In this document: positions 51,326 through 63,775 of the stretch, piece after piece
How the letters are laid out: each line of letters starts with the position of its first letter
Position numbering within the stretch: the first letter of the stretch is position 1
Source of the DNA: an uncultured Methylococcaceae bacterium
GTDB taxonomy: Bacteria > Pseudomonadota > Gammaproteobacteria > Methylococcales > Methylomonadaceae
Direction of reading: 5' to 3'
Assembly: GCA_913056195.1 (NCBI GenBank)
Contig: CAJXMF010000001.1
Coordinates: 36,270 to 100,269, forward strand
Length of the DNA: 64,000 nt
Translations under genes and position numbers: made by a program
Notes under the pieces: generated by a model
Databases searched by the model: none
What the model saw: the letters and a program-made list of their open reading frames with translations, nothing else
What the model was told of the DNA's origin: nothing

Positions 51326-52072
51326 TCAAGTTGCCAGCGTATCCATCAGATCAATCATAAATTCAGTCTCTTCATCATCCACTTTTTCCCAAGCACTAAA
51401 TCCCAGGCTTTTTAGAATAGCGACACCTTTTTCATCATGATGCATCGCTGTCAATAATTCTGTCATGGCATCGCGTTGATGCTGAAATTTGGGTCCAACC
51501 AACAGTGCGTGATGAATGACACTGATTTGACTGCGCACCAGAACTTTAAGTTGATTCTTAATCAGATTAGAAAGGTCATCAAAGGCCTCAGCCAGAAAAA
51601 TACCGACATCGGCTTCATTTTTCAGCAGATGTTTTGCGACAACAGGATAAGAGCCTGCTAATACGGGCGTAATATTCTCGCTGTTAAGGTCGGCCGGTTC
51701 CAGCATAATCATACCCATGAGCCGAACATCGGGATCGTCGGTGTAAGCGACTCGAACGCCTTGTTTCAATTCCTCCACAGCGTTCACCGCAGAGCTTTCT
51801 GCAACGGCGATGATGGCTTCATCGGATTCACCCGCCGCTTTGGCGACGGGTAAAAATCCTTTTTCGCGTACCAGCATGGCTGCATCGTAAGGGTTGGCAT
51901 AAATCAAATCAATTTGATCATTGTGTATGGCCGCATGTAACTCATCGAAATCATTAAACATTTCCAGATGAATAGCCTCGCAGGTTTGTCTTTGCAGCCA
52001 GGTATTAAAAATGTACCAGCCAGAGATGTGATCAGGAGAAAAGTCAGGGCTGACGGTAAACGTATAAGACAT
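51326..52072 (-). CDS. PhnD/phosphonate-binding-like periplasmic-binding-protein fold, without signal peptide (cytoplasmic)
   Basis: 248 aa. The type-2 PBP pattern is LIYANPYDAAMLV...G...V; the N-terminus MSYTFTVSPDFSPD has no hydrophobic leader. Last gene of the GTPase operon. Confidence 0.55.
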   Translation of the reverse strand: MSYTFTVSPDFSPDHISGWYIFNTWLQRQTCEAIHLEMFNDFDELHAAIHNDQIDLIYANPYDAAMLVREKGFLPVAKAAGESDEAIIAVAESSAVNAVEELKQGVRVAYTDDPDVRLMGMIMLEPADLNSENITPVLAGSYPVVAKHLLKNEADVGIFLAEAFDDLSNLIKNQLKVLVRSQISVIHHALLVGPKFQHQRDAMTELLTAMHHDEKGVAILKSLGFSAWEKVDDEETEFMIDLMDTLAT

Positions 52073-52087
52073 AGCAAACTCCGTAGC

Positions 52088-52564
52088 TTAAAACAGGGTG
52101 GGATACAGCTGGATGCATTCTTCAACTTTTTTGCGCGAGGGCTTGCGCCGTACCGACGTGTAACCCACCACTGATCCTTTTCGGATATTTGGAATCACGG
52201 TGGCTTTTACCCAGTAAAACCCACCATCCTTACGTAAATTTTTTACAAATCCTTGCCATTTTTCACCCTTTTGAACGGTGTTCCACAAATCCTTGAATGC
52301 GGCAGGCGGCATGTCCGGGTGTCGTAAAATGCAATGCGGTGCACCGATAAGTTCCTCTTCCGTATAACCCGACATTTCGACAAAAGACTTGTTGACATGG
52401 GTAATAGTACCGTCCAGGTCTGTGGTGGATACAATCAATTTTCCATCGGGATAAGGCGTTTCAATATCGGTATAGAGAATTCTGCGTTTAATCGAGTTAT
52501 ATAGCTGTAAATAAACTTCTTTGAAATCGCCGACTATATCATCAGGCTGCATATCAGAAATCAT
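52088..52564 (-). CDS. Stand-alone Aer-type (putatively FAD-binding) PAS domain protein
   Basis: The start is taken at ATG 52564 after the strong RBS AAGGGGAGG. STTDLDGTITHVNKSFVEMSGYTEEELIGAPHCILRHPDMPPAAFKDLW...W.G.VKN.RKDG..YWV matches the Aer PAS signature. Confidence 0.75.
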   Translation of the reverse strand: MISDMQPDDIVGDFKEVYLQLYNSIKRRILYTDIETPYPDGKLIVSTTDLDGTITHVNKSFVEMSGYTEEELIGAPHCILRHPDMPPAAFKDLWNTVQKGEKWQGFVKNLRKDGGFYWVKATVIPNIRKGSVVGYTSVRRKPSRKKVEECIQLYPTLF

Positions 52565-52580
52565 AAGACCTCCCCTTAGC

Positions 52581-52943
52581 TTACAACAATTCAGCGATAC
52601 TTTGTGCGGCGCGTTTAACATCCAGAAAAATCAGCCCCAGCTTGGCATTCGCTTTTGCCATGACAGTGAGAACCGCTTCATTGCCTGCATAGGTCATCAA
52701 AACATAGCCGTGATCGCCTTTGATCAAAACCTGCTCCAGCGTGCCGCGATTCAATTCTTGTGCGGTTCTGTCGCCTAATGACAACATGGCCGCACTCATG
52801 GCACCGACCCGATCTTCATCCAGTTCGGCCGGTAAAACCGAGGCCATCATTAAACCATCTGTTGAAATAACGCCGGATGCTTCAATGTCGCCGGATGTCC
52901 CGTTTAATTCGACCAATATTGAAGTTAACATATCGGATTTCAT
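52581..52943 (-). CDS. Roadblock/LC7 (MglB/CvnB-like) domain protein
   Basis: 120 aa. GVISTDGLMMASVLP...DEDRVGAMSAAMLSLGDRTAQEL..G.LEQVLIKGDHGYVLM is the canonical Robl pattern. Confidence 0.8.
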   Translation of the reverse strand: MKSDMLTSILVELNGTSGDIEASGVISTDGLMMASVLPAELDEDRVGAMSAAMLSLGDRTAQELNRGTLEQVLIKGDHGYVLMTYAGNEAVLTVMAKANAKLGLIFLDVKRAAQSIAELL

Positions 52944-52959
52944 TTAATTTCTCCTGTTT

Positions 52960-53616
52960 TTACGATGATTGAGAAGTCTCTGTTGTGGCATAACGAACGC
53001 TCAAGGCCCAGACTAGGTTGACAAAATCGGGGTGATTAAAAAAAGGGGTTCCTGCGATGACCAGCATAAAACGATAACCGCCAATATAAAGCGGCCAGAA
53101 CCCCAGTTGATTATTGCCATACGCATCGACAATTCCCCAGGACTGGCTGGCTATGCTCAAGTTGTTTTTTAACAGGCCGGAGCGACGCTTATGGATAATC
53201 GCCAGTTCTGCGCTGAGTGCCGATAATTCTTCGGCTGTTTCGTGCGGGAACCCTTGGCTGCCAAGGTAAAGCCCTTGTTCATCGGCCAGCAGTGATTTTT
53301 CCTGGCTGGAAAAAGAGGACAAAAGAGTCGGTAAAAAATCTTCCAGGGTTGCATTCGGGGCGGTCAAAGGTTTTTTTAAACCCTGTATCCAGCCTAATTT
53401 CTGGCAATGATGTAACAGGTTTAACGCCTGTTCTTCGTCATCGGTTTGCATTAAGTGTTTTAAGCTGTCGATTGACAGTGCAGGCGTTGTTCGCTCGCCC
53501 AGTAAATGCTGTAAAAATTGGCGACTTTTATTGTCTTCGTGTTCAGAAACGGAAAAATAGGTACCGGTCGGTGAGGGATAAAGGAATAAGTCTTTAGCCA
53601 AGGTCAATTTAGCCAT
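52960..53616 (-). CDS. Hypothetical protein; the C-terminal half resembles a divergent Roadblock/LC7 fold
   Basis: 218 aa. SLLADEQGLYLGSQGFPHETAEELSALSAELAIIHKR...WGIVDAYGNNQLGFWPLYIGGYRFMLVI follows the Robl secondary-structure logic. The start codon abuts the GTPase stop. Confidence 0.45.
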   Translation of the reverse strand: MAKLTLAKDLFLYPSPTGTYFSVSEHEDNKSRQFLQHLLGERTTPALSIDSLKHLMQTDDEEQALNLLHHCQKLGWIQGLKKPLTAPNATLEDFLPTLLSSFSSQEKSLLADEQGLYLGSQGFPHETAEELSALSAELAIIHKRRSGLLKNNLSIASQSWGIVDAYGNNQLGFWPLYIGGYRFMLVIAGTPFFNHPDFVNLVWALSVRYATTETSQSS

Positions 53617-54159
53617 TTAATCATCTCCTTCAATACCAGGATCAATCGAGAACAGTAAAGATTGAACGAGTATGGAAACATCACGAGAATTTCTGGCATC
53701 GACTGCAAAAACCGGATGCTTAACATTCAGTTTATTAAGTTCCTGATGATAGTGTTCGATAGTAGGTGTTGCTTTCAAGTCCATTTGCGTTACCCCGATA
53801 GCCACACTGGTTTGCTTGATGAAATCATCAAAGGCATTGATGAAAAAATTGAGATCCTGAAACGGATTTTTTCGGCTGTTGTCTAACAGCAGGATCAAGC
53901 CGATTCCACCCTCGATCAGAATATCCCACATAAAATCGAAACGCTCCTGCCCCGGTGTGCCATACAAATGTATCTTGTCGCCATCTGGCAGGTTCATGAC
54001 ACCGTAATCCATCGCAACCGTGGTTTCGGCTTTTCGGTCTTTCGTCATATCCGATGCCGAGGCATCGGTTTTGACCGGTTTAATATCACTGATGCTATGG
54101 ATCGCGGTGGTTTTGCCAGCACCGACAGGTCCTGTGAAAATTATTTTATGCTGAATCAT
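53617..54159 (-). CDS. Small P-loop GTPase of the COG2229 / conservon CvnD type
   Basis: G1 GPVGAGKT, G3 LYGTPGQERFDFMWD (Asp-less, as in MglA/CvnD) and G4 VTQMD; 180 aa. Confidence 0.8.
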   Translation of the reverse strand: MIQHKIIFTGPVGAGKTTAIHSISDIKPVKTDASASDMTKDRKAETTVAMDYGVMNLPDGDKIHLYGTPGQERFDFMWDILIEGGIGLILLLDNSRKNPFQDLNFFINAFDDFIKQTSVAIGVTQMDLKATPTIEHYHQELNKLNVKHPVFAVDARNSRDVSILVQSLLFSIDPGIEGDD

Positions 54160-55348
54160 CGTGATTTTTGGCGCGTAATTTATTTAATAGTTTGTTTAAC
54201 AAACCGCTTGATTTTATTTTCTTTTTTGGTGTTTCCTCAGGCCCATATTTTCGCTCTATCTGGGCCACCAGGTTTAATGCCTGACAGCCGCTGATAAACA
54301 CAAATACATACTGTGGCCCGATATTAAGCGTTCTGGCTACATCTAACATGGATTGTGGTTGTTGCATCAATAATGCGGTGATTCTCAAGGCATGAGGGGT
54401 AATCACCAGCCGGGTAAAATTAGGCCAGTGTTTTAAAACAACAGGCTTTGCAGGATCGATCTGTTCAGGATAGCGCCCCTTCGATGTCCAGATTGCCAAT
54501 TTCCATAAAAAACTTTCTTCATCCTGAAACTTGTCACTGGCCTGATTGACTTTTGTTTGTTGCAGATTGACCGGTAAAACACGAACTTTGCTTTCTGAGG
54601 TACGGCTGATTTTCAGGCTGGCGAAGGCGCGTAATTGATGGTCGCTGGCATCCAGCCAGATTTCATGGCTGTGTGGAAAAATAAGTAAAGGCCGCCAGCT
54701 GGCATCGACTTGTAAGGCTTGTTTCTTGTGACGGGCGACAGTGATTGCATGGTAAACAGAACCTAAAAGATAGTCGCCAGGCGAAAAACGGGCCTGATCA
54801 ATTTGCGCAGGATCTTCTATATTGATTGTTGGCATTAAACCGATAAAGCGGGTAAAACCTTTTTCATTAAACTCTTCCGCCGGGCGTGTGTGATTTTCTA
54901 GCGGCTTGATCGGCGAGCTTGGCGTTTTGTCGGTCGCTGCAGGTGATACTTTTGCGTGAAGTGCAGAGGACTTGGGCGCGGCTTCAATTTCTTTTTGTAT
55001 GGGGGGCGACTTTAATTGCAACTGACATTGCATGATAACTTGAATAATACCGTCTCTCGTCAGAGGCTTTTTCAGAAACAGATAATCATGCTCGATTGTA
55101 TTTGGCTTGTTTTTCAAAGATACAATCACAAGAATTCGCTCAGGGTGTTCTGCGCGTTGCTTTGCCAGTATTTTATCGGCACCGGCAAAATCAATATCGA
55201 TTAAATCAACATCAGGGCTATCGGCATCGTTCACAATTTTGATATGTTCAGAAATCTGCTTAAAAAACACGCATAGCATTTTATGTGTGCTTTGCGGAAC
55301 ACCGTGAATGGCGATTTTTATATCTTTATCATTCTCGCGCTGTTTCAT
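54146..55348 (-). CDS. Atypical receiver (REC-like) domain protein with Pro/Ser/Ala linker and an unknown C-terminal domain
   Basis: REC-like landmarks DLIDIDF, LVIVS and FLKKPLT are present. The N-terminal acidic pair is replaced by HGVPQ. A low-complexity linker SPPIQKEIEAAPKSS...SSPIKP precedes a ~230-aa domain I cannot place. Confidence 0.5.
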   Translation of the reverse strand: MKQRENDKDIKIAIHGVPQSTHKMLCVFFKQISEHIKIVNDADSPDVDLIDIDFAGADKILAKQRAEHPERILVIVSLKNKPNTIEHDYLFLKKPLTRDGIIQVIMQCQLQLKSPPIQKEIEAAPKSSALHAKVSPAATDKTPSSPIKPLENHTRPAEEFNEKGFTRFIGLMPTINIEDPAQIDQARFSPGDYLLGSVYHAITVARHKKQALQVDASWRPLLIFPHSHEIWLDASDHQLRAFASLKISRTSESKVRVLPVNLQQTKVNQASDKFQDEESFLWKLAIWTSKGRYPEQIDPAKPVVLKHWPNFTRLVITPHALRITALLMQQPQSMLDVARTLNIGPQYVFVFISGCQALNLVAQIERKYGPEETPKKKIKSSGLLNKLLNKLRAKNHDDSA

Positions 55349-56040
55349 GACGGCTTATCGCTAAAGTATTGTTGGAGTTGTTGCCATTCCACAATCAACG
55401 GTCTGTCTTTTTGTTCGGCCTGGGTAAAAATATCTGAAAAACGCTGACGATTATCGGTCGATCGATAAATTTGTAGTAATAAATGCTGGAGGTCTTCGTT
55501 ATCATCAGTAAACAGGGCTTCTTCGAGCAGGTCTATGGCGTGATCGACCTGGCTGTATTCAAGATAACTATGCGCGAGCGACAAGGTATCAACGGAATCA
55601 TCAAGCGAAGCTTGGTGCTGTGTTGTAATCAGTTCAGATTCTGCTATCCGCCCTGTGGCAAAAAGGCTGTATTTTACCGTTTGCAGCGTATGCAGATGTT
55701 TCTCGTCCACTGCGTTTTCCAGTAAGTTACGTTGCTGCGCAGACAACAGACTCTGGCTGCCGCTTATCATGCGCTTGATTAAGGCTTGCCCCTTGCCCTG
55801 AAGAATAATCAATAAATCCGTGAGGGCAGCGAATAAGTGATCGGCTTGTTGCTCAGTAAAACAGTAATAAATACGTTGAACATGACAAAGCAAATCGTTT
55901 GGTGTTCTGGAAATATGATGCAGCATTGTTTCCAGATCAAACGATAAACTTCCATTAAAAACACAGGCTCTGAATATAAAAGGCCGATCTTCAGCTGTTT
56001 TGTTGTCTTGAGATTCTTCAATAACAGGGAGGCTAAGCAT
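55345..56040 (-). CDS. Hypothetical protein with FimV-C-terminal-like helical motif
   Basis: 231 aa. LSLAHSYLEYSQVDHAIDLLEEAL resembles the FimV C-terminal TPR-like motif. Has an ATGA overlap with the next gene. Confidence 0.4.
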   Translation of the reverse strand: MLSLPVIEESQDNKTAEDRPFIFRACVFNGSLSFDLETMLHHISRTPNDLLCHVQRIYYCFTEQQADHLFAALTDLLIILQGKGQALIKRMISGSQSLLSAQQRNLLENAVDEKHLHTLQTVKYSLFATGRIAESELITTQHQASLDDSVDTLSLAHSYLEYSQVDHAIDLLEEALFTDDNEDLQHLLLQIYRSTDNRQRFSDIFTQAEQKDRPLIVEWQQLQQYFSDKPS

Positions 56041-56133
56041 CGATAAACCCTAAAAAACATAATCAAATTAAGCATAGGTTAAGGTTGATGCTTTTTGAAT
56101 AGTCAGACTACAAAGTGTGAGACAGATCTAAAT

Positions 56134-58428
56134 TTAATTTTTAAGCTTATCTGTATTTTCAGCCTGCTGGATAATCAACGGGCACAGCATAAAACCGATC
56201 AAGACCCCTAATGACACGACCCCGGCCAGGATTTTTAGTGAGGTACTTTCAGCCGCCAGCAGACTGCCGAAGGCCAGTGCGCTGGTCAGCATGGAGACAG
56301 TCATCGCCTGATAGGTCACTAAAATATTTCCGCCGCGGTTTTCCTGATAAAAAATACCGTAGTCGACACAAATCGCGACAACCAGTAAAAAAGCGACTAA
56401 ATGGAGAAAGCTGATGGCGACACCTGCAATGGCCCAGGATGACAAAATAAACAAGGCGGCTAACAGGGCCGGCAACAAGGTCGAGACTGTCATCGTCAGG
56501 CTGCGATAGCGATGTAGCATCAGCAGCATAATCAGGCCTACGCCTGCCAACAGCAGCTTTTTGGCCATTTGCGTATAGTCGTTGAGCATGGCATTCAATA
56601 AATCACGCTGACTGAAATAGCGTGCATGGCTCCAATCAGAAAACGCCTGGCGAACAATTTCAGGCGTATGTTGCGATAAGCCAATCAGAATAATTGTTTT
56701 ATCCGCCTGTTGCATGATGCGACTGTCGAGCAAATGTTTGACTGGTGTTTTAAATATTACATCCAGCGTCAATGGTGGGTTGGAAGGATAGTTCAAATGG
56801 CCTAATTTAGTGACGGATAAACCTTCCTGTTGTAATGCGTCCTGCCAGTGCTTTATGTTTGTCGGCGTCAGCTTGGCCTTTAGGGTTTTCTGGTTCAGAC
56901 GCTGTTGCTGACTGGACAGCAACCAAGGGAAAAGACCGAAATATTCGCTAAGTGCCTGCTGTTGCTTGAGCTGATCAAGACGTTTATAAACCTGCTCGGC
57001 ATGGCGTAACGCCAATTCAGTGGTGTCGCCTGACACCAGAATGAAGCGGCCTGGCTCGATGCTGGTCATGCGGGCGCGAATACGGCGGTCTTGCTGCTTT
57101 AGATCATCAAGTTCCGGCGTGAGTTGCTGCATATCCTGCATCCATTGCAGATGGCTCAGTGGCCAAATGGCGACCATTAAAAAAACAGCAATCATTGTCC
57201 AGCCGATTTTACGATAACGCTGACACAAATGTATCCAGCTTTGAATGCCGACGATTCTGACCGGTTGCGCGGATTGAATCACCAGTGCCGGTAGCATGAA
57301 GCGCGTGATCAGTAGAGCGATAACAATACCGCTCGCTGCAAATACAGCGACTTGTTGAAAACCGGGATACCCCGACACGCCCAACGCCAAATAGCCGATC
57401 ATAGTGGTTACCCCCCCAAGTAACATACTCGGCCAGATTTGCACAATGATGCTCCGGGGCGGTTGCTGTGACGATTGCTGCGCATGCACGAGTGCATGAA
57501 TCGGGTAATCGATACAAATACCGACCAATGTCGCGCCGATGGCGATGGTCATACCGTGGATATAGCCAAAAATACTGGCAGTGATCAGAATCGCGCTCAG
57601 AATCACAATCGCTAACAGGGTAAATACCTGAAACATTTGAAAAAGCGAGCGGAACGCCCACAAAAACAGAAGCATCAAGGCCAGCGAAGAGACGACACTG
57701 ATTTTGATAATATCGCCTTGAATCAGACCTTGGGTCGTCACGGCAAAAACCGGTACACCGGTCATTTCCAGCTGATAATTCTGATTGGCGTTCAAGGCCT
57801 TGAAACGCGCCAGAATAGCCTGTTGAATAGCTTTTTGCGCCGCGGTATCCATACCCGAAGGCCGGGTTTCTAAAATCAGATTTTGATAGCTTGTTGTGGG
57901 TTGGGCTTTGAATTTTTTCGCCAGGCCTTGAAAGCCGTTAAGAGTTAACAACAAAGGATCTTGCAAGGCAATCGGCTTAATCAAAGATGCTTGCGGCGAC
58001 AGTAATGCCTGTTTTAAAAAATGCGCTTTTTGATGTAATCCCTGTGTTGAGAACAGTGTGTTTAAATCGTCTTCGGGATGCAAACTGTAAATAGAATTGG
58101 CATGATTAACATATAACGTCTGCAAAGCATTTAGTGCCTGTTTTTTTTGTTCAGGATTCCAGACATCGGTGACCTTGTCGATGCGCTTTAATTGCGCAAT
58201 CAATTGCTGGATAAATTGTGGCTCAACGGCCTGGTTCGTGTTGGAGGTGATAGCAATTAAATAACGTCGCGACAAATTACCTGATTGCATGGCGTGGGCT
58301 AGCAATGCTTCATCGGCATTTTTACCGCTGACAATAAAGGTGGACAGGTCGGTTTTAAAGCTGACGCCGTTATAGGTCAGCGCGGCTAACAGCAAGGGTA
58401 ATCCGTAAAATAAAATGCGTAACAGCAT
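56134..58428 (-). CDS. MMPL/RND-superfamily predicted exporter (COG4258-like)
   Basis: 764 aa with two blocks of ~6 TM helices, each preceded by a large periplasmic loop. The architecture and neighbours match exporters of aryl-polyene-type clusters. Confidence 0.75.
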   Translation of the reverse strand: MLLRILFYGLPLLLAALTYNGVSFKTDLSTFIVSGKNADEALLAHAMQSGNLSRRYLIAITSNTNQAVEPQFIQQLIAQLKRIDKVTDVWNPEQKKQALNALQTLYVNHANSIYSLHPEDDLNTLFSTQGLHQKAHFLKQALLSPQASLIKPIALQDPLLLTLNGFQGLAKKFKAQPTTSYQNLILETRPSGMDTAAQKAIQQAILARFKALNANQNYQLEMTGVPVFAVTTQGLIQGDIIKISVVSSLALMLLFLWAFRSLFQMFQVFTLLAIVILSAILITASIFGYIHGMTIAIGATLVGICIDYPIHALVHAQQSSQQPPRSIIVQIWPSMLLGGVTTMIGYLALGVSGYPGFQQVAVFAASGIVIALLITRFMLPALVIQSAQPVRIVGIQSWIHLCQRYRKIGWTMIAVFLMVAIWPLSHLQWMQDMQQLTPELDDLKQQDRRIRARMTSIEPGRFILVSGDTTELALRHAEQVYKRLDQLKQQQALSEYFGLFPWLLSSQQQRLNQKTLKAKLTPTNIKHWQDALQQEGLSVTKLGHLNYPSNPPLTLDVIFKTPVKHLLDSRIMQQADKTIILIGLSQHTPEIVRQAFSDWSHARYFSQRDLLNAMLNDYTQMAKKLLLAGVGLIMLLMLHRYRSLTMTVSTLLPALLAALFILSSWAIAGVAISFLHLVAFLLVVAICVDYGIFYQENRGGNILVTYQAMTVSMLTSALAFGSLLAAESTSLKILAGVVSLGVLIGFMLCPLIIQQAENTDKLKN

Positions 58429-58432
58429 ATAT

Positions 58433-59059
58433 TCAGTGTGTGGATTGGGTTAATTGTCGGAGCAGATTCTCAATTTCTTGCTCAACCTTTTCACCTTCGG
58501 CTATTTTAGACAAGCTCATGATACTGCTGTCGCCATCGGCCTGCTGGATGTCGATACGATTAGCGGGCCGTTGCAATGGGCCACTGATAATAATCTTGAA
58601 GGCGGAATCAGGATCGTTTTTATCCTTTAAAATCAGCTGCCATTGATCGGCCTGGCTCAAGAAATCCAGTTGATAAAATTTCTCGAGAAGCAGCATATCC
58701 TGGCTCATCAGGGCCTTGAACACCGCAACATTCAGACTGAATGGGTGACTCTCATCGAGCAAGCCCTGATGGCGTAGCTGATTTTTTACATCGTAATAAA
58801 AAAGCTGCTGCCCGATAACCGCCATCAATACCCGTTCCGGTTTGAGCTGTTGTTTAATCATCACCCCCTCCTTTGGCAAGGAATACAAAAAACCTTCACC
58901 ATGCCAGGGCTGCGCCATCAGAGTCAGATCCTTACGTTCTTGATAAGCTAACTTTACGGCGCTGTCGGTGTGCATTCTTTTCAATACCGCAGGCAAGCTA
59001 TCGCGGGCATGAGCTGCGAAACTGATGAACAACAGGAAAAACAAGCCAAAATAGTTCAT
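58433..59059 (-). CDS. LolA-like outer-membrane lipoprotein-carrier-fold protein
   Basis: Start at ATG 59059 (ATGA overlap with the upstream stop). Signal peptide MNYFGLFFLLFISFAAHA and a beta-rich ~200-aa body in the position of the COG2834 protein. Confidence 0.55.
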   Translation of the reverse strand: MNYFGLFFLLFISFAAHARDSLPAVLKRMHTDSAVKLAYQERKDLTLMAQPWHGEGFLYSLPKEGVMIKQQLKPERVLMAVIGQQLFYYDVKNQLRHQGLLDESHPFSLNVAVFKALMSQDMLLLEKFYQLDFLSQADQWQLILKDKNDPDSAFKIIISGPLQRPANRIDIQQADGDSSIMSLSKIAEGEKVEQEIENLLRQLTQSTH

Positions 59060-59814
59060 TGGTTCTCCAAATCCATCCATACTTTGCGACCATTAACAAT
59101 CATGCTGCGCAGACTGGCAGCAGGGTTTGGAATGGAAAGTTCCGGGAAACGAATATGTCGGTAAATGTATTCGCCAATCATCAATAATCCAATTAACAGA
59201 TAAATAATCAGCCCATTGTACAACGCCCACCATCGATCACTTGCCCACACAGCCAAAACAATACAAAACACAGCATTAAAGGCGAAAAACACCGTCCAGA
59301 TCAATGTCAGCCGGGCTAAATAATCACTGATACCCGGGGGGAACTGTGGAAACTCCAGGCGAACAAAGCGTTCGATGAAGGACGGTCCGTGGTTTTTCAA
59401 CAAGGTTCGGCCAAACACGAACATCAGCATCAATTGAATCAATACCGGCATTGCCTTAGCGGTCAGTGTTTGTATATAAAAAGCGCCTAATAACAGCACA
59501 ACCGCGATGCTGACTTTATAGAGTCTGGTTTTAAAGCGGCGGACTTTTACCGCCTGTAATAAATAAATTGCCGAAAACAATGTTGGCGCAACCCAGGCCA
59601 TATGCTGCTGGATACCGATATAAACCAACAGCGGATAGGCCATAAAAAAACAAGTGACAATAATGCCTTTCGTCATGCCGACAAGACTTAAGCCGGATTG
59701 AGCCTGAATCTGTTTATTGCCGGCCTGAATAATCGCCTCTGCGGATTGTTTGGACGACAGCGTACTGCGATTTCGCGATTTACGTTTGCGGCGTTTTTTA
59801 TAATGACTCATCAA
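59056..59814 (-). CDS. Integral membrane protein (COG4648-like, as found in aryl-polyene/xanthomonadin clusters)
   Basis: Basic N-tail and ~6 TM helices. GRTLLKNHGPSFIERFVRLE...PPGISDYLARLTLIW...WWALYNGLIIYLLIGLLMIGEYIYR resembles my memory of this family. Confidence 0.5.
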   Translation of the reverse strand: MMSHYKKRRKRKSRNRSTLSSKQSAEAIIQAGNKQIQAQSGLSLVGMTKGIIVTCFFMAYPLLVYIGIQQHMAWVAPTLFSAIYLLQAVKVRRFKTRLYKVSIAVVLLLGAFYIQTLTAKAMPVLIQLMLMFVFGRTLLKNHGPSFIERFVRLEFPQFPPGISDYLARLTLIWTVFFAFNAVFCIVLAVWASDRWWALYNGLIIYLLIGLLMIGEYIYRHIRFPELSIPNPAASLRSMIVNGRKVWMDLENQ

Positions 59815-60374
59815 TCAACAATTTTATAGACTTTGCCATTGCGGAAATGTACACGGAAGCGATTGAAGCGGCCACTCCAATAGGTCCAGATATTCATGTT
59901 CAGATCAGGCGTTTCGGTGATCGGCGGATAGCCAATGGCTACCAGTACAGCTTTTTTACGCATGCCTTTGCCAACCGAACCTTTTTTGATATGGCGACGT
60001 TCCAGACGATTAAACTGCCTTAAATTCACTTTGCGTTTAGCAAATAATTTGTCAAATGCAGCAAAAATATCATCGCCGGTATGTTTTTTGACATTTTTGA
60101 TCAACAAAGGCCTGGCCATATTCTCCGGCTGGACCTCTATAGTTTTGGACTTGATGTTCAACAATCTCACTTTGGTATTGACTGGAATAGATGCACCACG
60201 GCGAAAATTGGTCGTTAAATGCACGCCTTTTTCATAGCGGATCACAAATTGGGTATAGTAATTGTCGCCGACGACGATATGGGCGGGTAATTCATCAGGT
60301 TTCAAAGTTTTATTACAGGCCGTCAACAGTATGGCTATCGACAATAAAAACAGACTGCGGATCAATAATTTCAT
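59811..60374 (-). CDS. Lipoprotein with BamE/SmpA-OmlA-like C-terminal motif
   Basis: Start at ATG 60374 after an AGGAG RBS. Lipobox LLTAC, with the C-terminal motif GMRKKAVLVAIGYP...W.Y...F...V.F.NGKVYKI. Confidence 0.6.
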   Translation of the reverse strand: MKLLIRSLFLLSIAILLTACNKTLKPDELPAHIVVGDNYYTQFVIRYEKGVHLTTNFRRGASIPVNTKVRLLNIKSKTIEVQPENMARPLLIKNVKKHTGDDIFAAFDKLFAKRKVNLRQFNRLERRHIKKGSVGKGMRKKAVLVAIGYPPITETPDLNMNIWTYWSGRFNRFRVHFRNGKVYKIVD

Positions 60375-60790
60375 AGCAACATCTCCTGGCTGAAAGATAA
60401 ATAAAGTGGCTGTAATGGTTAGGGCGATCGCCAAAAAAACTAACTCAGATATTACACCAGACCGCTCTCTATAGTAATGCGTTACTTAAAGACTGTTTCG
60501 ACCGTGGATGTGTGTTTTGCCTAAAGCGCTGTTCCGGTTTTAGTCTTTAATCGGTGCATCATCGCTCGTTATGGCTCCAGCATCAAATTGTGGCTTTAAT
60601 TTTCGACGCATAAGATGAGGAAATTCTATCTGTTTTTTTGGGGATACAATTTGGCAGAGGCAAGTTCTTGTAAAATTCAATATAAACAACTGAATTTTAA
60701 CAAAATTAAAGAAACCTTCCCATTTTTATGAAATATCCGGATTAAGGTACGCATCGCCTACCAGAGAGCATGATTTTACGGTTTTATGTT

Positions 60791-60916: not shown

Positions 60917-63775
60917 TTAGTCGTCGAAGCTCTTTTTAAGGCTGTGACAGAGATTGCAACTAACCTCATCGCCGGCCTTCAAGGACACCAGCACCTTGCC
61001 TTTTTTATTTTTTAAGACGCGATCTACCGGTACTTTCGCCAGGCGCGTGCCGAGGTGATCGGCGCCATGACAGGCTGCACAGCTGTCGCCGTTGCCGCGG
61101 TTCTTGGCAAAATGACCATGCACGTCTTCATCGAGCCAGTTCGGATCGTTGACCGGGTGCATGCCATGCGGACCGTCCATAGTACCATTGGGGAAGCTGT
61201 TGGCTTCGTGGCAGGTGGTACATTCGGTGATGGTGCCGGTGTGTCCCTGCAGCTGCATTGCCGTGACATTATCATTGGCATCCGGATTGCGGTTTGGCCA
61301 GATGGCATGCGGACTGCCGTGGCAGGATTCACAACCCAGGTTGGCATGGCCGTCCAGACTGTCGCGATACAGGGTGTTGTCATTTTCGGCAAAACGCGGG
61401 GTTTTAGCTGGCGTTGGTTCCGCGGCCGGATCATTGGCGGCGTATGCCAGTTTGGCGACAGGTTCGCTGCCGATGCCGCTGTGACAGGATCCGCACTGTG
61501 GTTCTTGAGCCCAGGGCTCACGTACTGTGCCATCCTGGCGGGTAAATTCCCCGCCCATAGCCAGCAAGTCGCCATGGCAGCTGTCGCATTTCTGGCCGGC
61601 AGTGAACATTCTGCCGCGGAAGCATTGGGTGATCTTGCCGGGATGACATTGAAAGCAGTTCTTCTCCATCGGTACGTTGTCTCCGAAAGGGATCAGGGTA
61701 ATAATGCCGTTCTGATTTTGCGGATCAAGCAACACTGGATCGCCCTGAAAGTCCCGGATCAGGGCGCCCTGTGCATCGACCTGCAGTTTGCCATGGAAGC
61801 CATGCATGACTTTCGACATGCTGTCGAGGAACGGATTGCCGCCCGGTCCGCCGACTACGGCAAGGGCATTGGAGCGGTGACAGCCGGCGCAGAGAACAGG
61901 TTGATCCTGGGCGATGAAATCGGTGCCATGCTTGAAATCATGCAACATCAGGATATTCTTCTTGGCCGCCCTTTCCACATCAAGGCGGTCGCTGGAAGCG
62001 GGTGCGACGAACTGGGGGCCAGCGCTGCGTGCCGCCGTGTCGGCGCCGACCTTGCCGGCGGTATGACAATCCCGGCAATCGACTTCTGCTGATACCGGCG
62101 CGACCACATCGGTGGTGGCCAGCACCGCGCCGTTGTTGCTGTCGATGGCCTGGATGCGCAGCAGTGGGTAGGAATTCAGACGCCCCTTGTCATCGACAGA
62201 GGTCATGGGAATGCCCTGAGCGGTATGCCAACCCTTGTCAATAATGTATTTGCTGAAATCCTGTGGATCATTGACAACATAAGGATCACTGATGCCTGGC
62301 ATGTAGCGGCCGTGACCCTGATCGAGATTATCCAGGGTCAGCAGGCCTTCGTCGAAGGCCGGGTTCAATCCTGGAAACAGCAGGGAAGCGATGCTTTGAC
62401 CGTTGAAATCATCCCAGAAATCAGACTTCCGGATCGTGGCATCGGCCAGTAGACTGCCCAGAGGGAAATTCTGGCTGGTGGAGTTGATCGAGTCGGGTCC
62501 GACGGGATCATTGGGATTGGTCGTCGCAGAATATTTCAACGCGACCGAACTGGCGTCAAGAATCAGAGGTTTGTTGGCGCCTGTCATACCCTTGCGTATG
62601 GCATGTGCATTGATGGTATTGAACGGTGGCAATATATTCAGCGGGTAGGAACCCAGATCGGCGCAGTGCATGCCCAGATCATTGAAGGGCAGCACCACAT
62701 GCTGGCCGTCGCCCGCTGCGGCAGAGCCCGGAGCCGGCTGCAGGGGCACCATGCCGCCCGGTAAACCCGGCGTGCCGGTACCGACGATGACGGTCATGCT
62801 GTCGGTACAGCGCGCACCCTGGTCATCGGTAACGATAAAATGTACCAGGAAGCTGCCGTTGTTGACATCGAAGACAACATCGCCCGGCACTAATACCATG
62901 GGACGTACATCGGCGCCGCCATTGAAATCCCATTCATAGCTCAAAGGCATACCTTCGGGATCACTGGCTGTACCGGCAAAATTGACGCTCTCGCCCAGGT
63001 TGATAGTGACCGTGGTGCTGGCAGGGCTGGTAATGGAGCAGCTTGGTGGTTGATTGCTGACAGGTGGGGGCGTTGATGGCGTCGAACAATCCTCGGGAGC
63101 ATGCTCAACATCCTTGCTGGCGCTCAACTGATCGGCCTGAACCTTGACGCGACAAGGGACTTGCGTCGGGTCCTCGACCCTGAAAGAAAAATGGGACGGA
63201 TCCTCACTCCGGTTTTTATCGGAAAGCAATGCACCGGTAATGTCGTCATAGAGCTTTACCGATTGCGGCTGTCCGCCTTTGAATTCACCCTTGACGGTGA
63301 GCCGCTTGTCTTTATATTTGGCATCGTCAATCTTGATTTTCTGAAGGCTACCGCCCCCCAAATCACCAGAACCTTCTTCGCTACCGCTGCAATTGTCCGG
63401 TGCTTTTTTAACCGATTTGCTGCGACTCACATGGCCCAGTTGTACTCTGACCGAACAGGGCACTGCTGCGCCTTGCAGGTCTTTCACTTCCAGGGTCAGT
63501 GATCTTTTTTTGCTTTTCTTTTGCAACAACAGTTGTCCGGTTTGTGCATCGAACAAGGATACCGAAAAAGGTTTTTCGCCTTTCAGTTTTATCTTGACCT
63601 TAAGCCGGTGTTTTCCAGCATCATATTTGGCACTCTTAATCGACAGATGTGTTTCATGCTTTTCACTGCCCGACTTCTCTTCATCGTCCGCCATAACGAT
63701 GAAATTGATTGATAAACTGGCGATGATGATGGCCAGCCATTGCAGTAGCCATCTTTGTATGGTTCTGTTGCTCAT
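60917..63775 (-). CDS. Secreted multihaem c-type cytochrome (nine CXXCH) with N-terminal tandem repeats and a PKD-like domain
   Basis: 952 aa with an AAGGGGG RBS and a signal-anchor-like N-terminus. Haem motifs: CRDCH, CAGCH, CFQCH, CDSCH, CGSCH, CESCH, CTTCH, CAACH, CNLCH. PKD-like segment NFAGTASDPEGMPLSYEWDF. Confidence 0.85.
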   Translation of the reverse strand: MSNRTIQRWLLQWLAIIIASLSINFIVMADDEEKSGSEKHETHLSIKSAKYDAGKHRLKVKIKLKGEKPFSVSLFDAQTGQLLLQKKSKKRSLTLEVKDLQGAAVPCSVRVQLGHVSRSKSVKKAPDNCSGSEEGSGDLGGGSLQKIKIDDAKYKDKRLTVKGEFKGGQPQSVKLYDDITGALLSDKNRSEDPSHFSFRVEDPTQVPCRVKVQADQLSASKDVEHAPEDCSTPSTPPPVSNQPPSCSITSPASTTVTINLGESVNFAGTASDPEGMPLSYEWDFNGGADVRPMVLVPGDVVFDVNNGSFLVHFIVTDDQGARCTDSMTVIVGTGTPGLPGGMVPLQPAPGSAAAGDGQHVVLPFNDLGMHCADLGSYPLNILPPFNTINAHAIRKGMTGANKPLILDASSVALKYSATTNPNDPVGPDSINSTSQNFPLGSLLADATIRKSDFWDDFNGQSIASLLFPGLNPAFDEGLLTLDNLDQGHGRYMPGISDPYVVNDPQDFSKYIIDKGWHTAQGIPMTSVDDKGRLNSYPLLRIQAIDSNNGAVLATTDVVAPVSAEVDCRDCHTAGKVGADTAARSAGPQFVAPASSDRLDVERAAKKNILMLHDFKHGTDFIAQDQPVLCAGCHRSNALAVVGGPGGNPFLDSMSKVMHGFHGKLQVDAQGALIRDFQGDPVLLDPQNQNGIITLIPFGDNVPMEKNCFQCHPGKITQCFRGRMFTAGQKCDSCHGDLLAMGGEFTRQDGTVREPWAQEPQCGSCHSGIGSEPVAKLAYAANDPAAEPTPAKTPRFAENDNTLYRDSLDGHANLGCESCHGSPHAIWPNRNPDANDNVTAMQLQGHTGTITECTTCHEANSFPNGTMDGPHGMHPVNDPNWLDEDVHGHFAKNRGNGDSCAACHGADHLGTRLAKVPVDRVLKNKKGKVLVSLKAGDEVSCNLCHSLKKSFDD

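Follow-up and report, generated by a model that had tools for sequence, protein, structure and literature searches.

A seven-gene block in Methylococcales and Thiothrix that extends the Group 3 MglA core with a TPR-like protein and candidate sensor proteins

Group 3 MglA systems were defined by Wuichet and Sogaard-Andersen in 2015 by the gene order DUF>MglA>MglB>MglB and are found almost only in beta- and gammaproteobacteria (PMC4316618). Their neighbourhood comprises a gene for a protein with a domain of unknown function (DUF), followed by genes for a MglA small GTPase and for one or two MglB proteins, and the DUF protein is described as receiver-like at its N-terminus, with a linker that varies and a C-terminal region resembling a winged helix-turn-helix (wHTH) (PMC4316618). 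Table S2 of that census gives the order DUF>MglA>MglB>MglB for Neisseria, Acidithiobacillus, MEALZ_2464, and Metme_1347, with the organisms of the last two misprinted as ‘Methylobacterium’ alcaliphilum and methanica MC09 (PMC4316618); MEALZ_2464 belongs to Methylomicrobium alcaliphilum and Metme_1347 to Methylomonas methanica, and both are methanotroph Group 3 loci. In Snodgrassella, where a Group 3 mgl locus is present, all three mglB genes were reported to benefit bee-gut colonisation, and mutation of the orphan mglB-3 altered spreading on soft agar (PMC11112851). A literature search on methanotroph and gammaproteobacterial MglA modules, including the locus tags MEALZ_2462-2465, Metme_1347, and NMB0476, found no experimental work on the module. 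Here, we describe a block of seven genes (51326-56040, minus strand) in a 64,000-nucleotide (nt) stretch of DNA from an uncultured Methylococcaceae bacterium (contig CAJXMF010000001.1), hereafter the window, in which a core of this published kind is accompanied by three further genes that are conserved with it in Methylococcales and Thiothrix.

A Group 3 core with conserved additional genes

Judged by its gene layout, the block is a real operon of a methane-oxidising bacterium, with its seven genes tightly packed. It consists of seven co-directional open reading frames (ORFs) on the minus strand, numbered from gene 1 (most upstream) to gene 7, with all coordinates in those of the window (Table 1). 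Genes 1 and 2 share a 4-nt ATGA overlap (55345-55348), genes 2 and 3 overlap by 14 nt (54146-54159), the stop of gene 3 abuts the start of gene 4 at 53616/53617, and gaps of 16, 16, and 15 nt separate genes 4 and 5, 5 and 6, and 6 and 7, respectively. Both the ORF list and a reading of the sequence bear out these junctions exactly as they had been reported in a preliminary description of this DNA, made from the sequence alone, which had proposed a compact unit around a MglA/CvnD-type small GTPase and Roadblock proteins, a proposal that our results support. The starts of genes 2-4 lie inside, or right at the end of, the preceding gene, and a Shine-Dalgarno sequence is recognisable ahead of each of genes 4-7. 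For gene 6, the mechanical ORF list starts at 52621, but we prefer the start at 52564 because a GGGGAGG Shine-Dalgarno sequence precedes it, because three public contigs with identical proteins carry the same call of 158 amino acids (aa), and because homologues measure 157-166 aa. Terminators that might split the genes were also looked for; the terminator-like sites within the block are weak and intragenic, and they are no commoner than in shuffled sequence (16 vs 12.5 ± 3). The terminator scan reported no such site in the spacer upstream of gene 1, which is likely the promoter region of the module.

The assignment to a known group draws on the GTPase encoded by gene 3, whose motifs (G1 GPVGAGKT; G2 TT, in AETTVAMDYG; G3 GTPGQ, in LYGTPGQERF; G4 TQMD, in GVTQMD; and G5 DAR, in VDAR) are each at least 95% conserved among 80 homologues. 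GTPGQ with threonine in place of arginine in G2 is the signature of MglA Groups 2-5, and a lysine-less G4 (deviating from [NT]KxD) with a DAR G5 is that of Groups 2 and 3 (PMC4316618). Gene 3 has the whole Group 3 combination, i.e., GTPGQ, no arginine finger in G2, a lysine-less G4, and a DAR G5, and it lacks the Group 1 hallmarks of an intrinsic arginine finger beside the G2 threonine and a TVPGQ G3. It is 58.5% identical to its counterpart at the Neisseria gonorrhoeae locus and 31-39% identical to Streptomyces CvnD-type proteins, and identity and E values place it nearer to recognised members of Group 3 than to those of Group 2 or Group 1; a profile search of the PDB matched MglA structures (Myxococcus xanthus MglA) at E 2e-4. 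We classify gene 3, on its motifs and relatedness, as a Group 3 MglA-family small GTPase with predicted GTP binding and hydrolysis. Elsewhere in the block, a Pfam scan, in which gene 3 itself matched ATP_bind_1/Ras, identified gene 5 (Robl_LC7, 3.1e-16), gene 6 (PAS_3, 1.6e-15), and gene 7 (Phosphonate-bd, 1.7e-41), and gave no match for the 231-, 400-, and 218-aa proteins of genes 1, 2, and 4.

Together with the sequence and model comparisons given below, these assignments identify genes 2-5 as a Group 3 MglA core of a kind already catalogued, methanotroph loci included. The preliminary description had held that no characterised system with this gene set was known; this reading claimed too much, since the core is a system already published as Group 3, with methanotroph loci in Table S2 (PMC4316618). 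In an annotated plasmid and chromid collection, the best match was the Neisseria gonorrhoeae locus, in which genes 2 (partial), 4 (42% identity, at the same position), and 5 (59%) are syntenic, and no counterparts of genes 1, 6, and 7 lie adjacent to it. On NZ_CP119140.1 (locus L084, 4400-6540), mglA and the receiver/wHTH gene upstream of it each match in two frames, and these Neisseria genes, as also those of NZ_CP119142.1, look frameshifted, through gene decay or assembly error; the 2.17-Mb NZ_CP119140.1 is labelled a plasmid and is evidently a chromosome.

Conservation extends beyond the core. We compared the seven window proteins by tblastn with 80 fetched genome loci, 63 of which had enough sequence on both sides to be termed complete. 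In 55 of these 63 loci, all seven genes keep one order, overlapping or with short gaps between them, which goes far beyond chance; five have genes 1-5 only, and three are fragmentary or odd. The seven-gene loci come from Methylococcales and Thiothrix, i.e., from two orders. The GTPase of the window marks its source as a methanotroph of marine Methylomonadaceae type: it is 93-94% identical to those of the methane-oxidising endosymbiont of Gigantopelta aegis and of a ‘Methylomarinum’ metagenome-assembled genome (MAG), and 65-76% identical to proteins of Methylomonas, Methylobacter, Methylovulum, Methylotuvimicrobium, Methylocaldum, Crenothrix, and Thiothrix. Clustering of the flanking ORFs over the loci yielded no family common to more than 15 of them. 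Because gene order is kept in 55 of the 63 complete loci while the flanks vary, we consider the seven genes a conserved unit, and genes 1, 6, and 7 are conserved additions to the core in Methylococcales and Thiothrix. A MAG labelled Methyloversatilis universalis (L079) also carries a seven-gene locus, with junction spacing and G+C content (0.59 vs 0.58) like those of Methylocaldum loci L066 and L070; it was left out as evidence for a betaproteobacterial seven-gene locus because the contig may be mis-binned.

Proteins of the block

The AlphaFold2 model of gene 2 (mean predicted local distance difference test score, pLDDT, 79.8) starts with a receiver-like domain, which a disordered linker joins to a well-predicted alpha/beta domain that leads into a winged helix and a terminal helix, an architecture that fits the published description of the Group 3 DUF protein (PMC4316618); this model and the Foldseek matches to REC (receiver) domains agree with the earlier reading of the 400-aa protein as an atypical receiver followed by a linker and a further domain. 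The receiver fold is assigned through Foldseek, the protein being without a Pfam Response_reg match, and a PDB profile search gave marginal matches (EvgA receiver, E 0.24; spurious Mediator matches). The family comprises 1701 cluster representatives at 50% identity (E<=1e-3). Its D51, D53, S77, and K94-P95 are invariant, and its beta1-alpha1 loop has, in most members, a single acidic residue, which is aspartate in 56 of 71 members and is replaced by proline (P18) in the window protein, so that receiver phosphorylation is doubtful in the window lineage and gene 2 is best described as an atypical receiver that may escape phosphorylation. Linker length and composition vary among homologues, some of which have tandem receivers or long acidic linkers. 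Alignments of gene 2 with a Thermus DUF4388/PATAN protein and with a 436-aa Ralstonia neighbour were not significant, and the Ralstonia megaplasmid locus has a different arrangement. The label ‘RomR-like’, which the preliminary description had given to this protein, fits its receiver and linker layout but fails at the C-terminus, where gene 2 has a folded domain of ~200 aa (alpha/beta plus a winged helix, residues 320-363 of the model).

This C-terminal end potentially links gene 2 to the CvnC (DUF742) proteins of actinobacterial conservons. An hhalign comparison of the gene 2 family with eight conservon DUF742 proteins scored 27.5 (E 0.0027, probability 11%), was collinear over DUF742 positions 45-120, spanned the entire conserved portion of DUF742/CvnC, and took in the terminal helix (‘GLLxKxLxKLR’ / ‘LLxxVxxGLxxL’), compared with 13.9 for a reversed profile and a maximum of 21.0 in 30 column shuffles. 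Among 56 family members, Pfam DUF742 gave no match, and HTH_20 matched weakly in nine. MfpC, which stands in the place of CvnC in the mfp conservon of mycobacteria, has been reported to be an exchange factor for guanine nucleotides (GEF) (PMC11343762). Tentatively, we regard the last ~80 residues of gene 2 as CvnC/DUF742-like, a relation that appears new, and because of this end and the reported activity of MfpC, gene 2 could be a receiver-gated exchange factor.

Both genes between the GTPase and the PAS gene encode Roadblock proteins by our analysis. Gene 5 is a canonical Roadblock/LC7 (MglB-type) protein by sequence and carries, in ‘STDGL’, the Asp-Gly pair that has been described for MglBs of Groups 2-5 (PMC4316618). 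Gene 4 is, by its modelled structure, a second and divergent MglB/Roadblock protein: the AlphaFold2 model (pLDDT 75) opens with ~80 aa of helical extension, a Roadblock fold comes after this, and all top-50 Foldseek matches of this model are MglB, Roadblock, LC7, or LAMTOR proteins (E from 2.6e-4), in agreement with the cryptic Roadblock half that had been suspected in this 218-aa protein. An hhalign comparison with a diverse Roadblock profile aligned residues 82-149 (E 0.0027), with ‘ADxQG’ over the conserved ‘DG’, while comparison of the gene 4 family with the narrow gene 5 family alignment detected no relationship, and a PDB profile search with gene 4 gave marginal matches only (CvnB5, E 0.79). 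Hence, the kinship of gene 4 with Roadblock proteins is visible only with a taxonomically wider Roadblock profile and a structure model.

Gene 1 combines a conserved N-terminal region (motif H-x-QRIY...AAL-DLL) with a C-terminal TPR-like helical hairpin, and the invariant positions of its family alignment are L50, H53, R56, D75, G84, Q164, A168, L172, E173, and W219. It adjoins gene 2 in 71 loci, mostly with overlaps of 4-20 nt. TPR models of PilW, LapB, and BepA matched weakly in 15, 7, and 3 of 33 family members, respectively, and a PDB profile search found a TPR-like kinesin-light-chain design at E 7.5e-5. The FimV-C-terminal-like motif that had been proposed for this protein reduces to a weak, generic TPR-like resemblance: generic TPR models outscore FimV_Cterm (TIGR03504, a 44-aa model), which matched five of the 33 members (best E 0.014) and the window protein at E 0.11 (12.6 bits against a cut-off of 30.65 bits), and the FimV structure 4mal matched at E 0.74.

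Genes 6 and 7 resemble soluble sensor proteins. MmoS and NifL carry FAD (flavin adenine dinucleotide)-binding PAS domains, and the structures of both were matched by gene 6 (3ewk, E 1.7e-26, and 2gj3, E 1e-12) after the Aer PAS domain (8dik, E 8.7e-40), with which gene 6 shares a PH..(L/V)RHPDMP motif. No HAMP or methyl-accepting chemotaxis protein (MCP) domain was found in gene 6 by the Pfam scan. The protein is classified from sequence as a stand-alone Aer-type PAS protein, as the preliminary description had it, with a predicted FAD-type redox sensor domain. In gene 7, the Phosphonate-bd match covers residues 5-235 and, because it begins at residue 5, leaves no room for a leader; PtxB and ArrX were only remote matches, and no ABC (ATP-binding cassette) transporter genes occur within the block. 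These observations agree with the earlier notion of a signal-less PhnD-like protein, and by signal peptide and neighbouring genes gene 7 is not a PhnD-type transporter component, though the fold family fits. Gene 7 is presumed to be a cytoplasmic PhnD-like protein with a type 2 periplasmic-binding-protein fold, and, apart from one distant exception, every locus in which it was called has gene 6 as well. As a whole, profile annotation of the seven proteins left the earlier domain calls largely correct.

Table 1. Features of the seven-gene block in window coordinates, with the range of identity to the window protein across loci (tblastn)
Feature	Position	Strand	Length	Identity	Basis or remark
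Gene 1	55345-56040	(-)	231 aa	24-90% (genes 1 and 2)	
TPR-like segment of gene 1 (aa ~150-208)	55417-55593	(-)			Weak TPR-model matches
Gene 2	54146-55348	(-)	400 aa	24-90% (genes 1 and 2)	
Receiver-like domain of gene 2 (aa 9-113)	55010-55324	(-)			Foldseek CheY/REC matches, E 3e-4 to 1e-2, TM to target 0.6-0.68
Disordered linker of gene 2 (aa 117-156), rich in Pro/Ser/Lys	54881-55000	(-)			pLDDT <50
Winged helix and terminal helix of gene 2 (aa 313-393), tentatively DUF742/CvnC-like	54170-54412	(-)			hhalign
Gene 3 (GTPase)	53617-54159	(-)	180 aa	65-94%	
Gene 4	52960-53616	(-)	218 aa	45-92%	
Roadblock/LC7 fold of gene 4 (aa ~90-210)	52987-53349	(-)			alpha-beta-beta-alpha-beta-beta-beta-alpha in model
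Gene 5 (Roadblock)	52581-52943	(-)	120 aa	75-100%	Most conserved gene of the block
Gene 6 (PAS)	52088-52564	(-)	158 aa	55-96%	
Gene 7 (PhnD-like)	51326-52072	(-)	248 aa	53-88%	One 27% match outside the block
Spacer, MMPL-like gene to gene 1	56041-56133	(-)	93 nt		

Sensor genes in related loci and flanking genes

Several related loci carry other sensor genes near gene 5. A gene for a stand-alone protoglobin (185-187 aa, Pfam 5e-27; e.g., L038, 11763-12320, and L075, 11211-11774) is inserted between genes 4 and 5 or genes 5 and 6 in eight loci (of Methylobacter, a Methylumidiphilus MAG, and L068), seven of which are complete. In L073 (9092-9451), a stand-alone CZB (chemoreceptor zinc-binding) protein is encoded directly after gene 5, replacing the PAS and PhnD genes. 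In two five-gene variants, L052 and L072, PAS and PhnD genes are missing, and a Frz/Chp-like cluster encoding an X-REC protein, CheY, CheW, a dCache MCP, and a CheA-REC hybrid comes next, within ~400-500 nt (L072, 12025-20132; L052, 12084-~20000). In L058 (11217-15061), two genes are inserted between genes 4 and 5, one for a SpoIIE-type phosphatase of 903 aa with the domains PAS-SpoIIE-HATPase_c_2 and the other for a STAS-PhnD fusion of 376 aa, an arrangement that ties a PhnD-like domain to a partner-switching module. Further, the Thermus thermophilus plasmid pTthSNM1-7b (L087, 3369-5498) has an annotated DUF4388(PATAN)-GTPase-Roadblock-protoglobin operon, which is an independent case of a sensor globin beside an MglA-family GTPase. 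From these cases, we conclude that oxygen/redox-type sensors recur beside non-Group-1 MglA GTPases, and the exchangeable sensor position near gene 5, as read from these sequences, appears new.

The genes around the block show no comparable constancy. MMPL/LolA-like genes precede it only in its two closest relatives (L004 and L078) and are absent from the other ~75 loci; the preliminary description's claim of a transcriptional fusion to an envelope export module finds no support in this distribution, and a 93-nt gap lies in between. We rejected functional coupling to these export genes, the association being lineage-specific with no conserved flank, and on this comparison their adjacency is a local accident of gene order. 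The genes themselves form a co-directional set of four on the minus strand (56134-60434), encoding proteins of 207 aa, 252 aa (membrane), 215 aa (weak LolA_3), and 764 aa (an MMPL/HpnN/BstA-like resistance-nodulation-division transporter), which looks like a set for lipid or hopanoid/sterol export. Upstream of these four genes, 60917-63775 (minus strand) encodes a 952-aa protein with PKD and multihaem cytochrome c domains (Cytochrome_C7/c3, MtrC/MtrF-like domains II/IV), which may be a methanotroph cytochrome for extracellular electron transfer. On the other side, Methylomonas loci such as L057 (13526-16324) and L022 (10935-11549) carry, immediately downstream of gene 7, a histidine phosphatase gene (seven loci) and a class I adenylate cyclase gene (nine loci).

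Proposed mechanism, alternatives, and known systems

On balance, and with moderate confidence, we interpret the block as a self-contained cytoplasmic signalling module built on the Group 3 MglA core and working as follows. The gene 3 GTPase would cycle between GDP and GTP forms, and the gene 4 and gene 5 proteins would act together, probably as a heterodimer, as an MglB-type GTPase-activating protein (GAP) or regulator of the nucleotide state; MglB has been reported with both GAP and GEF properties (PMC13408092). Gene 2 would be the counterpart of CvnC, its C-terminal winged-helix module binding the GTPase as exchange factor or effector, and its receiver-like domain would gate this binding, replacing the kinase input of conservons. 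The proteins of genes 6 and 7 would be soluble inputs through which redox/oxygen status and a small anionic ligand reach the switch; their most likely binding partner is the Roadblock pair or the gene 2 protein, and the TPR-like protein of gene 1 may be a scaffold or effector for one nucleotide state. As output, protein-protein control (of localisation, or of a surface or motility function) is favoured over classical transcription control.

Several points weigh against this interpretation. The receiver-like domain of gene 2 in the window has P18 in place of the beta1-alpha1 acidic residue, and the similarity of this protein to DUF742 is weak, with an hhalign probability of 11%, and may perhaps reflect a generic winged helix. 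FAD binding by gene 6 and the ligand of gene 7 are predicted from homology, contact of the PAS and PhnD-like proteins with the GTPase module is presumed, five loci manage without genes 6 and 7, and no fusion of gene 1, 6, or 7 to genes 2-5 was found among the long gene 2 homologues. Experimental results on Group 3 systems are limited to the colonisation phenotypes of Snodgrassella (PMC11112851).

A first alternative is transcription control, in which gene 2 would be an atypical DNA-binding response regulator whose DNA binding is tuned by the GTPase and Roadblock proteins. This was the reading proposed for Group 3 systems by Wuichet and Sogaard-Andersen (PMC4316618), and the winged-helix region in the gene 2 model (residues 320-363), the weak HTH_20 matches in nine of 56 family members, and the conserved D51, S77, and K94 of the receiver-like domain are consistent with it. 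However, the same region aligns with DUF742, and MfpC was reported as a GTPase exchange factor rather than a DNA-acting protein (PMC11343762); further, no conserved target gene lies beside the block, where the flanks vary, and gene 2 has no significant sequence match to any DNA-binding regulator family. We consider this alternative unlikely. A polarity switch of the MglA/MglB/RomR type, like that of Myxococcus and Bdellovibrio, which would control surface motility or type IV pili and in which the sensors would steer reversals or pilus activity in the direction of favourable oxygen, would account for the MglA-family GTPase with MglB-type proteins, for a receiver-linker protein and a TPR-like protein that recall RomR and SgmX, for the CheA/CheW/MCP/CheY cluster next to two five-gene variants, which recalls Frz or Pil-Chp, and for the soft-agar spreading and colonisation phenotype of the Snodgrassella orphan mglB-3 mutation (PMC11112851). 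We judge it rather unlikely, given that the GTPase lacks the Group 1 arginine finger and TVPGQ, that the C-terminal domain of gene 2 is unlike RomR, that linkage to pilus genes is missing from the window and from most loci, and that the Che cluster is linked in two loci only.

It is also conceivable, if improbable, that genes 1, 6, and 7 are mere neighbours of a four-gene Group 3 core, with unrelated functions. The Neisseria locus has genes 2-5 only, genes 6-7 are missing from five Methylococcales loci, and no fusion proteins join genes 1, 6, and 7 to the core; yet the three genes are co-oriented with it at gaps of 15-16 nt or overlaps, are kept in 55 of 63 complete loci over two orders while the outer flanks change, and have other sensor genes in the position after gene 5 where PAS and PhnD genes are absent. 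Finally, the idea that the block is a proteobacterial copy of an actinobacterial conservon (CvnA-D, Group 2) draws on a GTPase of the same Pfam family (ATP_bind_1), its DAR G5, the Roadblock partner, and the possible DUF742-like segment. No HisKA or HATPase domain was found by the domain scan in the seven proteins or adjacent genes, and the block has neither a CvnA-type kinase nor a separate DUF742 gene, in line with the preliminary description, which could recognise neither CvnA nor the DUF742 protein CvnC; the GTPase is closer to Neisseria Group 3 (58.5%) than to Streptomyces CvnD-type proteins (31-39%), and the conservon order HK>MglB>CvnC>MglA (HK, histidine kinase; HK>Roadblock>DUF742>GTPase in Streptomyces) differs from that of the block. 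The lack of the kinase and the nearer kinship with Group 3 refute conservon membership, and we give this idea almost no credence.

With the extended module, an annotation-level family gains concrete, testable input hypotheses. Candidates for the input emerge from the methanotroph and Thiothrix version (an Aer-type redox PAS and a PhnD-like binder; in relatives, globin, CZB, and Che proteins), the end of gene 2 suggests a possible seat for the missing exchange-factor module, and the genetically tractable Methylotuvimicrobium buryatense (L032) carries the full seven-gene set. Oxygen or redox sensing via a small GTPase, if true, would bear on the positioning and adaptation of methane oxidisers at oxic-anoxic interfaces. 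More speculatively, and with well under even confidence, Group 3 systems might be soluble, modular ‘G-protein sensor kits’, in which a fixed core (the GTPase, a Roadblock heterodimer, and an exchange factor that is CvnC-like and gated by a receiver) takes its input from a cytoplasmic cassette of exchangeable sensors (Aer-type FAD-PAS plus PhnD-like protein, sensor globin, CZB protein, or a whole Che pathway), turning oxygen/redox status into a GTP/GDP switch in dwellers of oxygen gradients such as methanotrophs and Thiothrix; bacteria would then have, in addition to two-component and chemotaxis systems, a third logic of signalling.

Among known systems, Group 3 systems occur in many beta- and gammaproteobacteria, including Neisseria, Xanthomonas, Stenotrophomonas, and Acinetobacter, and those of the Neisseria NMB0476 locus, MEALZ_2464, Metme_1347, and Snodgrassella (mglA/mglB-1/mglB-2) share GTPase motifs, gene order, and taxonomic range with the block. 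Conservons (CvnA-D; Mfp) resemble it in the MglA-family GTPase with non-canonical G4 and DAR G5, the Roadblock partner, the possible DUF742-like module, and, in some of them, accessory sensor proteins (GAF), but the block lacks the membrane histidine-kinase-like CvnA, has two Roadblock proteins, differs in gene order and phylum, and has its DUF742-like part, if real, fused behind a receiver-like domain. The Group 1 system of Myxococcus xanthus (MglA/MglB/RomR-RomX) likewise pairs a small GTPase and Roadblock regulator with a receiver protein bearing a Pro-rich linker, and the TPR-type protein of the block is a possible analogue of SgmX; the block GTPase, in contrast, is without the arginine finger and TVPGQ, the components lie in one operon, the C-terminus of gene 2 is unrelated to that of RomR with its Glu-rich tail, and soluble PAS and PhnD sensors stand in place of the Frz pathway. 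Gene 6 aligns with Escherichia coli Aer (8dik) over the whole PAS domain, RHPDMP included, but is a 158-aa protein without HAMP and MCP signalling domains that is encoded inside a GTPase operon. Group 3 as published stops at four genes, whereas the block adds a TPR-like gene upstream and PAS and PhnD-like genes downstream, and this extended module, which is absent from the 2015 census, appears new.

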